Positions 1 to 23,987 of a stretch of DNA of 39,438 nt are shown one piece after another (position 1 is the stretch's first letter; each line of letters opens with the position of its first letter). Source of the DNA: Escherichia coli (GTDB taxonomy: Bacteria > Pseudomonadota > Gammaproteobacteria > Enterobacterales > Enterobacteriaceae). The notes beneath the pieces were generated by a model. The model searched no databases. It saw only the letters and a list, made by a program, of their open reading frames with translations, and was not told the DNA's origin. The stretch lies in NCBI RefSeq assembly GCF_003334335.1, contig NZ_QOWQ01000041.1; one strand, 5' to 3'. The position numbers and the translations under genes were made by a program.

Positions 1-468
1 AGTACGGATTTGGGGACGAAAAACACATCGTCGTTTGATTACGGAACCAAATCCACGAATAACACCGGGGCGCATACGCACAGTCTGAGTGGCTCTACGG
101 GGTCTGCCGGTGATCATACTCATGGTAATGGTATTCGTTGGCCAGGAGGCGGCGGTTCTGCGTTAGCATTTTATGATGGCGGTGGGTTCACTTATGTCCA
201 GGATTCACAGTATCAAGTAAGCCCGGGGACTTCTTCCCGTAGATCGTATTATCAACGTATTCAGACACAGTCAGCAGGTGCTCATACCCACTCGCTGTCT
301 GGTACTGCAGCAAGTTCTGGCGCACATGCACATACTGTAGGTATTGGTGCGCATACGCACTCCGTTGCGATTGGTTCACATGGACACACCATCACCGTTA
401 ACGCTGCTGGTAACGCGGAAAACACCGTCAAAAACATCGCATTTAACTATATTGTGAGGCTTGCATAA
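1..468 (+). CDS. stf: Phage side tail fibre protein, C-terminal portion (5' end cut by window edge)
   Basis: Reading frame is open back to nt 1 (no stop before the ATG at 10). Repeated GAHTHSLSG / HxH motifs and the C-terminal ...[24 protein letters not shown] match the lambda Stf-type fibre tip. Directly followed by tfa. Confidence 0.85.
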
Positions 469-1052
469 TGGCATTCAGAATGAGTGAACAACCACGGACC
501 ATAAAAATTTATAATCTGCTGGCCGGAACTAATGAATTTATTGGTGAAGGTGACGCATATATTCCGCCTCATACAGGTCTGCCAGCAAACAGTACCGATA
601 TTGCACCACCAGATATTCCTGCTGGCTTTGTGGCTGTTTTCAACAGTGATGAGGCATCGTGGCATCTCGTTGAAGACCATCGGGGTAAAACGGTTTATGA
701 CGTAGCGTCAGGGGACGAGTTATTTATTTCTGAACTCGGTCCGTTACCGGAAAATGTTACCTGGTTATCGCCGGAAGGGGAGTTTCAGAAGTGGAACGGC
801 ACAGCCTGGGTGAAGGATACGGAAGCAGAAAAAATGTTCCGGATCCGGGAGGCGGAAGAAACAAAAAACAACCTGATGCAGGTAGCCAGTGAGCATATTG
901 CGCCGCTTCAGGATGCTGCAGATCTGGAAATTGCAACGGAGGAAGAAACCTCATTGCTGGAAGCCTGGAAAAAGTATCGGGTGTTGCTGAACCGTGTTGA
1001 TACATCAACTGCACCTGATATTGAGTGGCCTACGAACCCTGTCAGGGAGTAA
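468..1052 (+). CDS. tfa: Tail fibre assembly protein (lambda Tfa-like chaperone)
   Basis: 194-aa ORF; [54 protein letters not shown]... is near-identical to lambda Tfa as I recall it. ATG overlaps the stf stop (TAATG), suggesting translational coupling. Confidence 0.9.
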
Positions 1053-1101
1053 TCATTGGGATTATGCCGCAGCACGTCTTAAGCAAGAACGTGCTGCGGT
1101 T
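888..1101 (+). repeat. Direct repeat copy A (tfa 3' end plus downstream hairpin)
   Basis: About 214 bp, roughly 85-90% identical by eye to 1937-2150, same orientation. Confidence 0.8.
1067..1099. terminator. Hairpin between convergent tfa and methyltransferase genes
   Basis: Perfect 11-bp stem ccgcagcacgt / acgtgctgcgg with an 11-nt loop. A T-run follows on the + strand after about 10 nt (tattttttcc), so intrinsic-terminator function is plausible but not classic. Confidence 0.5.
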
Positions 1102-1106
1102 GGATG

Positions 1107-1775
1107 CTATTTTTTCCCTGAAGCGGAAAACATTACTACAGTACCTTGAACCTTGGTTTTAACATTCTCGAAATGCTCTGAGAGTATATGTGTTAAGCCT
1201 TCTTCGGAATCTTTTGTGTTTGAAAAGATGCCTTTCTGATTGTAAATGCGCATCAGTTTTTGACCGAAGCTATTGTGCACAACTCCATCGCCAAGAATTG
1301 TGGCTCCGTATAGAGTTCCATCGTCAGTTAAGGCCTGCGCCGCATTGCGTATTACACAGCTTTTTGTAGATATATTTCCAGGCAGGCAGTGAAGAAGGTA
1401 AAACATGGAAATGGAATCAAATTGACCATGTAACGCCGCGGGATAAGGTTCAAAAACATCATGGCTAATTTTATGTTTAATTTTTGATTCCCCAGCCCTT
1501 GTAGATGCCGCGTTCAGGCTAGCTTCGTTCAAATCCATTAAAGATATCAGACTACTCTCAGGTACGTGAGTAAGGTAAAACCCAGTTCCAACACCAATAT
1601 CCAGATGGTTGTTACCTACATGTTCCAGATAGTGTGGAAGAAGGTGTTCCTTTGTAGGACATCCCCATGCAAGCCGATTTGATACTCCCAAAACCCACCA
1701 GTCATAAAGCTTTAGGGTAAGTGGTGTGTAAATTTTAGCCCCATCATCTGTGTTTTTTTTCATTGATTTCACCAT
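1107..1775 (-). CDS. Class I SAM-dependent methyltransferase-like protein (prophage cargo, substrate unknown)
   Basis: 222-aa ORF with a glycine-rich motif I (LDIGVGTGFY) followed by acidic/hydrophobic motifs (SISMFYLLHCLPG, LTDDGTLYGATILG) typical of the Rossmann-fold MTase superfamily. No DPPY/NPPY or PCQ DNA-MTase motif. Looks AT-richer than the core genes. Start may be the first ATG or the MKKNT ATG. Confidence 0.65.
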   Translation of the reverse strand: MVKSMKKNTDDGAKIYTPLTLKLYDWWVLGVSNRLAWGCPTKEHLLPHYLEHVGNNHLDIGVGTGFYLTHVPESSLISLMDLNEASLNAASTRAGESKIKHKISHDVFEPYPAALHGQFDSISMFYLLHCLPGNISTKSCVIRNAAQALTDDGTLYGATILGDGVVHNSFGQKLMRIYNQKGIFSNTKDSEEGLTHILSEHFENVKTKVQGTVVMFSASGKK

Positions 1776-1936
1776 GTTATAGTTTTATTTGTGAATTAAA
1801 TCAATTATGGCGATGAATTACAAGGGGTTAAATGCTGCCGCAGCATAGCGATATTGAAATAGCCTGGTATGCTTCGATACAGCAGGAGACGAATGGCTGG
1901 AAGACCGTCACCACACAGTTCTACATCCAGGAATTC

Positions 1937-2100
1937 AGTGAGTATATTGCGCCACTGCAGGATGCTGTAGATCTGGAAATCGCAACGGAGGAAGAAAGAT
2001 CGTTGCTGGAGGCATGGAATAAATATCGGGTATTGTTGAATCGTGTTGATACATCAACTGCACCGATATTGAGTGGCCTGCAAATCCTGTCAGGGAGTAA
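1937..2100 (+). pseudogene. Tail fibre assembly gene 3' remnant with frameshift
   Basis: Encodes ...[43 protein letters not shown], homologous to the Tfa C-terminus. A 1-nt deletion (cacctgat to caccgat) shifts the frame before the conserved DIEWP end. No N-terminal tfa sequence upstream. Confidence 0.8.
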
Positions 2101-2150
2101 TCATTGGGATTATGCCGCAGACACGTCGTATGCAGGAACGTGCTGCGGTT
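1937..2150 (+). repeat. Direct repeat copy B (degraded tfa 3' end plus hairpin)
   Basis: Matches 888-1101; hairpin stem retained with mismatches. Confidence 0.8.
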
Positions 2151-2214
2151 AGTTTGTAAGCTTTCGATAGTGGTTGTTATTTTTGCCCTTATTTGTTCCG
2201 GAGGCCATGGTTCA

Positions 2215-2385
2215 ATGGTCCGTCTGCCCCCTGTGGTGATGTCAGCAAAATCAGCCACTGCGCGAACCACAATAGCCCGGGAAGATGCTGAAGATCACCA
2301 GGTAAAGCTGTCAGCGCAGAAACTGGAAGAACTGCTCGCATCAATGGTTAAGGATGAGGTTGATCGCAATGATGGGATTTATTGA
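2215..2385 (+). CDS. Hypothetical small protein (57 aa) in prophage terminal region
   Basis: ATG at 2215 preceded by GGAGG about 10 nt upstream; a T-run lies about 90 nt downstream (2478-2486). No recognisable motif; coding status uncertain. Confidence 0.3.
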   Translation: MVRLPPVVMSAKSATARTTIAREDAEDHQVKLSAQKLEELLASMVKDEVDRNDGIY

Positions 2386-2698
2386 CGTCAGCGAGAGCAG
2401 AAGGAAGAACTGAATAACCTGAATGATTTACGCTCAATCAGAGCGATGATGATTGGCAGTAATTAGCGGTCAATTTCGGTTTTTTTGGCTGTGCGCTCCC
2501 CGCCCAGCATTGCGCGTCAATTAGCCCCCAAAAAAACGAAAAAGTTACAATCAAGTAAAAAATTCCTTCTGCAAAACTAAAAAAGATTTCAATAAAATCA
2601 GACAGTTAAAAACATAAAAAAAGGTACAAAAAAAACATCTCAAAGTCTTGTTTTTTGCTTCAAATACAATTGGTTATTGTGTTTTTTGAAACCTACCA

Positions 2699-2815
2699 GT
2701 GTGGTACATGGATATCGATACCACCGCCAATTATAAGCTGGGCGGTGCACAGCAACACGATAGCGTACGCCTCGATCCGTGGGTGTTTATGTTCTCAGCA
2801 GGATATCGTTTTTAA
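2699..2815 (+). pseudogene. ompW: ompW 3' remnant (last ~38 codons), 5' part displaced by prophage
   Basis: Frame gives VWYMDIDTTANYKLGGAQQHDSVRLDPWVFMFSAGYRF-stop, matching the OmpW C-terminus as I recall it. Upstream sequence in this frame hits a stop and does not resemble ompW. Sits about 60 bp from the convergent yciE end, as in K-12. Confidence 0.85.
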
Positions 2816-2874: not shown

Positions 2875-3381
2875 TTATTTCTTCGCTTCTACGCCATCAG
2901 TTTCAGAGCGAATTAAAAATTTCTCAGTTGTTTGCGGAATATTCTGAATCAGCCAGTCGGCCATTTGCTTTTCCTCATTTAAAATCGCTTCGATGGTTGG
3001 AATTGAAGCTGTATCACCGGCATTTTTTGCTGCTGCTAATAGTGAGGTGTAACAGGCGATTTCAAATTGCTCGAAGACATATCCGCTAATAGAGCCTTTG
3101 ACTATTTCATCAGAAGGGAATATACCACCGATTGACTGCCCAAGCGCAGCCATTTTACTCATGGAATCTTTAATGACTGAACGTGAAATGTCATTACGAT
3201 CAAGAATAGTTTCCAGTTGAACAATCTGGTTTTTGGTTTCACTAAGATGTTGTTCAATACGAGCGCGTAGTTCAGGATAATTATCTATACGGCTGGCCAT
3301 GGATTCAAGCATAGATTCGGCTTGCTTTTCCATTGCGTGGGCGTCACGTAACCAGTCATGATAATGTTCAATACGATTCAT
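2875..3381 (-). CDS. yciE: Ferritin-like DUF892 stress protein YciE
   Basis: 168 aa, MNRIEHYHDWLRDAHAMEKQAE... recognised as E. coli YciE. Confidence 0.93.
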   Translation of the reverse strand: MNRIEHYHDWLRDAHAMEKQAESMLESMASRIDNYPELRARIEQHLSETKNQIVQLETILDRNDISRSVIKDSMSKMAALGQSIGGIFPSDEIVKGSISGYVFEQFEIACYTSLLAAAKNAGDTASIPTIEAILNEEKQMADWLIQNIPQTTEKFLIRSETDGVEAKK

Positions 3382-3426
3382 GAAAATGTCCTCTTTATAA
3401 AATGACTAAAAGTTAAAATTCATATT

Positions 3427-3927
3427 TCAGGCTTTATTTTCGGCTTTCTTATTTACGTTATTAATGGCCAGATCAGTCAGTTTGATGTCGGTGGCCTTTT
3501 CTTCTTCCAGGGTTTCTTTCAGAAGCTTCGCTGCTTTACGGTAACCTAATTGTTCAGCCAGCGTCGCTAATGTCCCGTAACTGGCAATCTCATAATGCTC
3601 GACTTTCTGTGCTGCGGCAATCAGTGCGGCATCACGCACTTCGTTTTTCTCGGTACTTTCGATGACCTCATTAGCTTCTTCAATAAGACCTTCCATTGCC
3701 ACACATTTCATGCGCTTAATTTTCAGGTTCGATTCGGACTCCACAACTTGATCAATACGTTCAATCTGTCCATGAGTTTCCTCGAGGTGCGCATGAAAAG
3801 CCTGACTTAATTTTTCATTTGATGTTGCTCTTGCGAGTTTTGCCAGTGCCCGGGTTAATTGTTTTTCTGCGCTGTAGGTATCTGAAAGCAGGTGAATAAA
3901 TACATCTTCAATGGTCTTCATATTCAT
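3427..3927 (-). CDS. yciF: Ferritin-like stress protein YciF
   Basis: Recognised YciF sequence starting MNMKTIEDVF...; start moved to the ATG with a GGAG Shine-Dalgarno (track ORF extends 16 codons further upstream). Confidence 0.9.
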   Translation of the reverse strand: MNMKTIEDVFIHLLSDTYSAEKQLTRALAKLARATSNEKLSQAFHAHLEETHGQIERIDQVVESESNLKIKRMKCVAMEGLIEEANEVIESTEKNEVRDAALIAAAQKVEHYEIASYGTLATLAEQLGYRKAAKLLKETLEEEKATDIKLTDLAINNVNKKAENKA

Positions 3928-4012
3928 ATTTTTCTCCAGTGAAATCACTGCGAGCCATACGGCCCGCAGATGCAATTATCTTTATCAGCTGATATTAATA
4001 ATTAACGGTGAA

Positions 4013-4192
4013 TCAGGATTTGCCTGATTTATTACCACCGCTTTGTTGACCGCCTTTTTTACCCGCTTCAGATGCGCGTTGCGGATCATTTTTAAAATTA
4101 CCGCCGCTATGCTGACCGCCTTTACGGCCTGCGTCGGATGCCTTCTCACGGTCTTCGGCGAAATTTCCTGAACCACCACGATGTTCGGCCAT
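4013..4192 (-). CDS. yciG: KGG-repeat general stress protein YciG
   Basis: 59 aa, MAEHRGGSGNFAEDREKASDAGRKGG... with repeated KGGQ(H/Q)SGGN motifs; GGGAGA Shine-Dalgarno upstream of the ATG at 4192. Confidence 0.88.
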   Translation of the reverse strand: MAEHRGGSGNFAEDREKASDAGRKGGQHSGGNFKNDPQRASEAGKKGGQQSGGNKSGKS

Positions 4193-4544
4193 GTTATTTC
4201 TCCCGTTGCGTTGCATTGTTTCATTAATATGAGTGTTGTGTGTCGACACTCATTAAAATTAGTCGCTAATGAGAATTAGTCAAATTAAGCGCAACGAGAA
4301 GATAGAGGGAAAATATATTTTGAGGAACATTCTGGATATATTAACAATTACCTGAGGAATAAGTGACTTAGAGAAAATTATTGATTTTACTGGTGTTATG
4401 TTGCGGGATTAATTTGTTTGATTATATTACTGTTGGGCGGAAAAATGACGTAAGTTGACGTTCGACCGGGGTAAGCGAAACGGTAAAAAGATAAATATTA
4501 AATGAATTTAGGATTTTTCCGGCTTCATTAAAGAAAGTTAAAAT

Positions 4545-11123: not shown

Positions 11124-11153
11124 CAAAAAAAAGCCCGCTCATTAGGCGGGCTG
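11124..11153 (-). terminator. trp attenuator (leader terminator 3:4 hairpin plus U-tract)
   Basis: - strand reads agcccgcctaatgagcgggct followed by TTTTTTTT, between trpL and trpE. Confidence 0.9.
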
Positions 11154-11194
11154 GGTATCTGATTGCTTTACGCATGGTGAATACACTGCCCGTT

Positions 11195-11239
11195 TCAGGA
11201 AGTGCGCCACCAACCTTTCAGTACGAAAATTGCTTTCAT
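11195..11239 (-). CDS. trpL: trp operon leader peptide
   Basis: - strand ATG AAA GCA ATT TTC GTA CTG AAA GGT TGG TGG CGC ACT TCC TGA = [14 protein letters not shown] with tandem Trp codons. Confidence 0.92.
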
Positions 11240-23615: not shown

Positions 23616-23987
23616 TTATCATCATTCTTATTACCCATTTTTAATGAATTAAAGGGCTTTTAATACACCGCAGCAATAACAGCTTGAGTTATCTCAACAC
23701 AAAATAATAACCGTTAAGGGTGTAGCCTATGATCAACACAAATATGAAATATTGGTCCTGGATGGGCGCGTTTTCTCTGTCGATGCTCTTCTGGGCCGAA
23801 CTCCTCTGGATCATTACTCACTGATCCTTGACCCCGCTGCGGCGGGGTTGTCATTTGCTTTGCCACAAGGTTTCTCCTCTTTTATCAATTTGGGTTGTTA
23901 TCAAATCGTTACGCGATGTTTGTGTTATCTTTAATATTCACCCTGAAGAGAATCAGGGCTTCGCAACCCTGTCATTAAGGAGGAGCT

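Follow-up and report, generated by a model that had tools for sequence, protein, structure and literature searches.

Lambdoid morons such as lom and bor of phage lambda, or ompT and appY of the DLP12 prophage, lie after the tail-fibre genes next to attR. The same kind of position is taken by ybcY, known from the DLP12 prophage of Escherichia coli K-12 (b0562, NC_000913), where the region is annotated tfaD-ybcY-tfaX-appY-ompT and ybcY itself is a frameshifted pseudogene. A literature search, in which a few further mentions of ybcY were left aside, found no paper on its function; the gene appears in a list of promoters (PMC3946193), as a negative in a screen for Hha toxicity, and as a reference point on maps of the ompT vicinity in uropathogenic E. 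coli (UPEC) strains. Here, we describe an intact ybcY in an E. coli prophage inserted in ompW, located on a stretch of 39,438 nucleotides (contig NZ_QOWQ01000041.1 of assembly GCF_003334335.1) that is called the window below and whose coordinates are used throughout. The gene is already annotated, is typical of the lambdoid b region and is not new. What is added here is that it is under purifying selection, that it is gained and lost via the tfa (tail fibre assembly) repeats flanking it, and that its sole characterised relatives are fungal pyrone O-methyltransferases, which provides a concrete and testable hypothesis. The ybcY module (1102-1924) is probably a moron of the b region, that is, a lysogenic-conversion gene encoding an S-adenosylmethionine (SAM)-dependent small-molecule methyltransferase and moved by tfa recombination. 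It shares with the morons named above the place after the tail-fibre genes, a promoter of its own, a hairpin, a lower G+C content and presence or absence among related prophages. Unlike them, it codes for an enzyme of the cytoplasm and not for a surface protein or regulator, and it has no known phenotype.

The present copy matches K-12 ybcY at 98.8% nucleotide identity over 669 nt and resembles it in orientation, in having a tfa 3' end on one side and a truncated tfa (tfaX) on the other, and in its promoter hexamers. Unlike the frameshifted K-12 copy, whose prophage sits at argU, it is intact and belongs to a prophage in ompW, and in place of the appY and ompT that follow in K-12 there are only tfa relics and attR. 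In phage ev243 (Nesevirus), the PHROG 2132 protein gp26 shows 98.6% identity and is encoded at the same place between tail-fibre genes and integrase-side cargo (gene order stf-hyp-hyp-ybcY-'tfa-hydrolase-ompT-int), although an alpha/beta hydrolase gene and ompT lie downstream there and the upstream tail-fibre chaperones are different. At a threshold of at least 95% nucleotide identity, ybcY is found in 3832 of 5426 complete E. coli genomes (71%), occupying 4877 places with up to four per genome. It is also present in E. albertii and in 15 of 50,697 phage records, all of them temperate Escherichia phages and including ev243 and 2G7b.

The assignment of the protein rests on its sequence and predicted structure. 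The initial annotation, made from the DNA letters alone, had described a leftward open reading frame (ORF) of 222 amino acids (aa) with the motif LDIGVGTGFY and had placed its product among the class I methyltransferases; the ORF is confirmed at 1107-1775 on the minus strand, and Pfam, an AlphaFold 2 (AF2) model and structural matches bear out the class. Methyltransf_12 is the best Pfam match (6e-9), with Methyltransf_23, _25, _11 and _31 also matching, and phrog_2132, a family of unknown function, covers the protein with its entire profile (E 1.2e-156, positions 1-218 of 218). Motif I lies at residues 58-67, and its glycines G61, G63 and G65 are each conserved in at least 90% of an 85-sequence alignment. 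In the same alignment D81 of a DLN motif is invariant; it follows the strand E76-81 of the model and would provide the acidic residue that binds the ribose hydroxyls of SAM. The AF2 model (predicted local distance difference test score 93.6) has the seven-stranded alpha/beta Rossmann fold of the class together with an N-terminal helical lid. By these indications YbcY is a single-domain class I SAM-dependent methyltransferase with an intact ORF and predicted activity. Profile searches assigned it to generic methyltransferase families and to no curated family with a known substrate: all NCBIfam matches (CpaM, RquA, PmtA) stayed at or below 18 bits against cutoffs of 162-390, and sequence searches of the PDB with the single protein and with the 85-sequence profile returned generic Rossmann-core matches only (E of at least 2e-6). 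The initial annotation did not recognise the ORF as a characterised gene, which remains true of its function, although the gene does have a name.

YbcY belongs to a large and well-delimited family of single-domain proteins of ~219 aa that are conserved from end to end (813 clusters at 50% identity, E<=1e-10) and to whose members only generic names are attached. The family motifs are YDxxVLxxSNxxxWxCPT, HLDVGVGTGYYL, DLN, FDSIxxxYLLHCLPG, GATILG and YNxKGIFxNxxD, and the residues Y24, D81, H129, G157 and D189 are invariant, all of them being kept in the present protein. Chromosomal, non-prophage homologues occur in Salmonella (56% identity), Enterobacter (64%) and E. albertii (65%), so that the phage gene looks like a capture from a chromosomal enterobacterial pool. 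Foldseek searches of AFDB50, a check that the initial annotation had proposed, returned family members at template modelling (TM) scores of ~0.9 and many fungal proteins at 40-47% identity; among the matches are 'Methyltransferase verB' (E 3.7e-25, 36% identity over 225 columns, TM 0.88), a protein named 'vrtF' (40%) and a lichen 'putative O-methyltransferase' (46%). The fungal enzyme DovB has been shown experimentally to O-methylate an alpha-pyrone hydroxyl and is described as nearly identical to its counterpart in the ver cluster (VerB), and AurB, CtvB and AstB are stated to perform the same alpha-pyrone O-methylation (PMC12312803). These fungal alpha-pyrone O-methyltransferases are the only characterised relatives found. 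By sequence and predicted structure YbcY falls in the same family as VerB/DovB, AurB, CtvB and AstB, having the same size, a single domain and homology over the whole protein. In contrast to ybcY, however, the fungal genes stand in polyketide synthase clusters and their products act on pyrone-polyenes. No polyketide synthase or other pathway gene lies beside ybcY, whose neighbours are tfa, tfa relics and attR. E. coli is not known to make pyrone-polyene substrates and, with pathway neighbours also lacking, the substrate of the fungal enzymes cannot be transferred to YbcY. The surroundings of family genes elsewhere were compared by calling ORFs at 80 loci from ~35 genera and clustering them by all-against-all BLASTP. 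No conserved neighbour emerged from these loci; short-chain dehydrogenases, ABC ATPases and LysR regulators were the only recurrent neighbours, at varying positions, and the neighbourhoods at two environmental loci were uninformative. An ornithine-lipid or phospholipid N-methyltransferase role (OlsG/PmtA), an idea that had arisen from planctomycete homologues and from the presence of PmtA among the structural matches, is unsupported, PmtA scoring no better than unrelated methyltransferases.

Comparison of alleles shows that ybcY is under purifying selection. The ratio of nonsynonymous to synonymous substitution rates (dN/dS) is 0.24 between the present gene and the allele of a UPEC prophage remnant, 0.07 between the ev243 allele and that of the UPEC remnant, 0.21-0.25 against a Citrobacter variant (89% amino-acid identity) and ~0.10 against a Salmonella variant (78% identity). 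Full-length sequences form a 222-aa cluster of 6589 members, and a truncated 161-aa cluster holds 445.

The arrangement of the locus is as follows, with feature annotation taken from a record of the Prokaryotic Genome Annotation Pipeline (PGAP), NZ_CM129038, that is 100% identical to the window:

468..1052, plus strand: tfa, the intact tail fibre assembly gene (194 aa) and last late gene of the prophage (ORF list; PGAP annotation of NZ_CM129038)
876..1101, plus strand: repeat copy 1, the tfa 3' end with its downstream hairpin (repeat search and local alignment)
1066..1100, no strand: hairpin between the convergent tfa and ybcY (RNA fold)
1107..1775, minus strand: ybcY, class I SAM-dependent methyltransferase, annotated at 222 aa (Pfam, PHROG 2132, K-12 identity, AF2, dN/dS)
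1776..1804, minus strand: putative sigma-70 promoter of ybcY, TTGATT-17-TATAAC (exact match to the promoter listed for K-12 ybcY, PMC3946193)
1850..1930, minus strand: short fragment labelled 'DinI family, incomplete', of doubtful identity (PGAP annotation)
1925..2150, plus strand: repeat copy 2, the counterpart of K-12 tfaX, a tfa relic that is truncated and frameshifted (repeat search, alignment, PGAP)
2197..2466, plus strand: a second tail-fibre-assembly-like relic, a DUF4376 fragment with an internal stop (PGAP annotation mapped over)
2690..2815, plus strand: ompW 3' fragment marking the prophage end, with attR just upstream (PGAP annotation, ORF list)

The ybcY segment thus occupies the b-region position of an ompW-inserted lambdoid prophage, a few hundred bases from attR, as had been suggested from the sequence, and the ybcY stop codon lies 5 nt from the left edge of the cassette (~1102). 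Beyond the ompW fragment the same PGAP record places chromosomal yciE (start 2875), yciF and yciG and then the trp operon. The two direct repeats flanking ybcY are each ~226 bp long and ~88% identical, with two 1-bp indels in their alignment (876-1015 with 1925-2064 at 86%, 1017-1072 with 2065-2120 at 95%, and 1073-~1101 with 2122-~2150). The initial annotation had given them as ~214 bp (888-1101 and 1937-2150); they are real and their right ends were correct, whereas each begins 12 nt further left. The tfa of copy 2 is N-terminally truncated as well as frameshifted according to PGAP. The two repeats are different tfa alleles and do not stem from a recent duplication. Because these alleles are only ~88% identical and the tfa-ybcY-tfa layout is common to thousands of genomes, the layout is old and did not originate in the present genome. 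The left junction, from the tfa 3' end to the ybcY 3' end, is intact in 3066 genomes, the right junction, comprising the ybcY 5' end, the spacer and the tfa relic, in 3440, and the entire layout of 800-2300 in 2199.

Some smaller annotations overlap these features. Repeat copy 2 lies within a 106-aa TfaX-like ORF (1832-2152, plus strand), the first ~31 codons of which are non-tfa sequence fused to the tfa relic. In K-12, TfaX is annotated at 61 aa, and a divergent promoter for tfaX is included in the promoter catalogue. The 106-aa ORF is probably a relic rather than a gene, because its C-terminus is not conserved between strains. At the other repeat, a full-length Rfam match to IS009 (RF02111), the family of a 'small RNA gene' predicted in E. 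coli, covers 811-1009 on the plus strand with 223.8 bits; the match falls wholly within the tfa coding sequence, overlapping repeat copy 1, and the family may model the conserved tfa 3' end instead of an RNA gene. A 45-aa 'hypothetical protein' called by PGAP at 1025-1162 (plus strand), which spans the hairpin, overlaps the ybcY 3' end and is named 'nucleocapsid protein' in some K-12-derived records, is very likely a spurious call. The DinI label of the fragment at 1850-1930 was checked by BLASTP of its 27 aa against an intact DinI from a Citrobacter locus, and no alignment was obtained. Upstream of the window start, the tail-tip gene J of the prophage (locus L001, 351-3830) is interrupted by an internal stop and annotated as a pseudogene in the genome that is 100% identical, and because of this the prophage carrying the present ybcY may be defective. 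In the chromosomal part of the window, Rfam identifies two ordinary features, the Trp operon leader (11125-11218, minus strand) and the enterobacterial small RNA STnc180 (23656-23858, plus strand).

The presence of ybcY between the tfa sequences varies. A query of 800-2300, containing both ybcY and tfa sequence, matched 15681 places in 5227 genomes against the 4877 places of ybcY. Tfa-like sequence is more widespread than ybcY, which is therefore common but not fixed. The ybcY-free junction expected from recombination between the two repeats was predicted and then used as a search query, and was present as a single uninterrupted match in 20 genomes. In two of these that were examined, the same ompW prophage type lies beside yciE and the DUF4376 relic comes immediately after tfa. 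Where the sequences of the two repeat copies differ, these prophages are of copy-1 type up to 1016, with few exceptions, and of copy-2 type from 1032. Such a breakpoint inside the repeat is what homologous recombination would be expected to leave behind, whether ybcY was gained or lost, as had been predicted for the tfa 3' end. The search for the cassette with and without flanking repeats also agrees with the earlier view of ybcY as variable cargo and not a core gene.

The means by which the module is accommodated also differ between genomes, and the contexts of ev243, UPEC and O157:H7 confirm that the region is a cargo zone. In the UPEC DLP12 remnant at argU (tRNA-Arg), from a urine isolate (NZ_CP122448; locus L013, 2426-5311), only int', 'tfa, intact ybcY and ompT remain. 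Upstream of ybcY at a distance of 232 bp, and in the same orientation, lies ompT. The keeping of just ybcY and ompT in this remnant hints at selection and possibly at co-transcription by read-through. In O157:H7, tfa is separated from the hairpin-ybcY unit by an inserted block with a manganese catalase gene and yciE/F/G-like genes; in this variant the core of the module that is conserved begins at 1061. That block (NZ_CP038290; locus L014, 1337-3550) is ~74% identical in nucleotide sequence to chromosomal yciEFG (2875-4249), just outside attR in the window, and could go back to host genes next to ompW that a prophage with this type of integration picked up long ago. The segment 1061-1861, with the hairpin, ybcY and the promoter region, is common to all contexts examined, so the hairpin stays linked to ybcY in other genomic surroundings too. 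A different arrangement is seen in Citrobacter freundii (locus L015, 6001-6996), where the 89%-identical ybcY homologue lies beside purB-hflD-mnmA, with an intact dinI-family gene after it in the same orientation.

The signals around ybcY suggest a transcription unit of its own. For the K-12 ybcY/tfaX spacer, a constitutive sigma-70 promoter of ybcY (TTGATT-17-TATAAC) and an H-NS site have been listed (PMC3946193), and identical hexamers are present on the minus strand here, the -35 at 1804-1799 and the -10 at 1781-1776; a second promoter-like site is found at 1831-1804. At the other end, the hairpin noted in the tfa 3' repeat by the initial annotation is real (-28.6 kcal/mol, z -3.7) and is likely a two-way transcription stop serving both tfa and ybcY. 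The ATG at 1775 directly adjoins the -10 hexamer. Translation probably starts at the ATG at 1763, which would give a product of 218 aa, because the PHROG profile aligns from residue 5 of the annotated protein, homologues begin at Met5, GGTGA stands 5 nt upstream of this ATG, and the ATG at 1775 leaves no space behind the -10. G+C content is 38-45% across ybcY compared with ~50% in the tfa flanks, which fits both a foreign origin and H-NS binding. From these sequence features, ybcY may be expressed in the lysogen.

The reading that we consider probable for the ybcY module as a whole can be laid out in steps of differing certainty. Having been captured from the chromosomal enterobacterial branch of stand-alone ~219-aa methyltransferases, ybcY would pass from one lambdoid prophage to another through homologous recombination in the tfa sequences that flank it. 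In the lysogen it would be transcribed leftward, independently of the phage late operon and probably damped by H-NS. The least certain step is the chemistry: YbcY would transfer the SAM methyl group to a small molecule, probably by O-methylation, and the likeliest acceptor would be a hydrophobic metabolite with an acidic hydroxyl (enol, phenol or carboxyl), by analogy with the fungal alpha-pyrone O-methyltransferases, with the invariant His129 of the YLLHCLPG motif as candidate general base. The outcome would be that a host-made or environmental compound is changed or detoxified to the benefit of the lysogen. A more specific version is put forward tentatively and may well turn out to be wrong: YbcY would be a conversion enzyme that methylates one particular gut small molecule, such as a toxin or signal of phenolic, pyrone or quinolone-like structure coming from the host, the diet or competing microbes.

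Several points weigh against this account of a small-molecule methyltransferase. No bacterial member of the family has a known substrate, and 36% identity to VerB is too low for the substrate or even the atom specificity (O, N, C or S) to be transferred safely. Pathway genes such as a polyketide synthase do not adjoin ybcY, and the comparison of 80 loci likewise leaves the gene without a conserved partner. Expression in the lysogen is deduced from a promoter sequence match, the promoter itself having been assigned in K-12 from in-vitro RNA polymerase binding with the hexamers chosen by inspection, and the H-NS site listed in the same work could mean that the promoter is silenced (PMC3946193). 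K-12, finally, carries ybcY as a pseudogene without known consequence.

Three other explanations have been considered, all of which are less well supported than a small-molecule methyltransferase. The acceptor of YbcY might be macromolecular, for instance a nucleotide in tRNA or rRNA or a protein of the host or phage, in which case its methylation would adjust translation or some host pathway of the lysogen. However, the single ~219-aa domain has a neutral isoelectric point of 7.2 and no RNA- or DNA-binding module, the closest sequence relatives are fungal secondary-metabolite O-methyltransferases, and no NCBIfam RNA-methyltransferase model reaches its cutoff; CmoA, for its part, is a carboxy-SAM synthase and no RNA-binding enzyme. 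A macromolecular substrate is thus unlikely. That YbcY methylates DNA or belongs to a system of defence or anti-restriction is suggested by its being phage-borne and SAM-dependent, orphan DNA methyltransferases being frequent in phages. However, a regular-expression search of the protein for the DNA-methyltransferase motifs [DNS]PP[YFW] and PCQ found neither, in line with what had been said from the sequence alone, and the AF2 model contains no target-recognition domain. In the PADLOC defence library the sole and best match, to mad2, is insignificant (E 0.011, 12.5 bits), and no nuclease-like or specificity-subunit gene is annotated near ybcY in any of five contexts (here, K-12, ev243, the UPEC remnant and O157:H7), so that the claim of a missing partner nuclease also stands. 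With homologues that are stand-alone chromosomal genes and fungal pathway enzymes, a role in DNA modification or defence is highly improbable.

It is also conceivable that ybcY has no function and hitch-hikes between tfa recombination substrates, next to useful cargo such as ompT and carried along when tail-fibre modules are exchanged. The K-12 pseudogene, the many truncated forms (the 161-aa cluster with its 445 members) and the binding of H-NS to the region in K-12 would all be expected of such a passenger, and recent spread, as opposed to selection, could account for the very high nucleotide identity between genomes. Against this, dN/dS stays at 0.07-0.25 both between prophage alleles and towards the Citrobacter and Salmonella variants, the full-length cluster is large (6589 members), every family-invariant residue is kept, and ybcY is intact in a remnant that has been stripped of nearly all phage genes. 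We regard a functionless passenger as quite unlikely.

The gene ybcY ranks among the commonest cargo genes of E. coli prophages, and the lack of functional knowledge about it is probably due in part to the copy in K-12 being a pseudogene. If YbcY does methylate a specific small molecule of the gut, this would explain why an intact ybcY is kept in ~70% of E. coli genomes, even in stripped prophage remnants. Prophage fitness factors would then include, besides the usual surface proteins, toxins and defence systems, a separate class of enzymes directed at metabolites.
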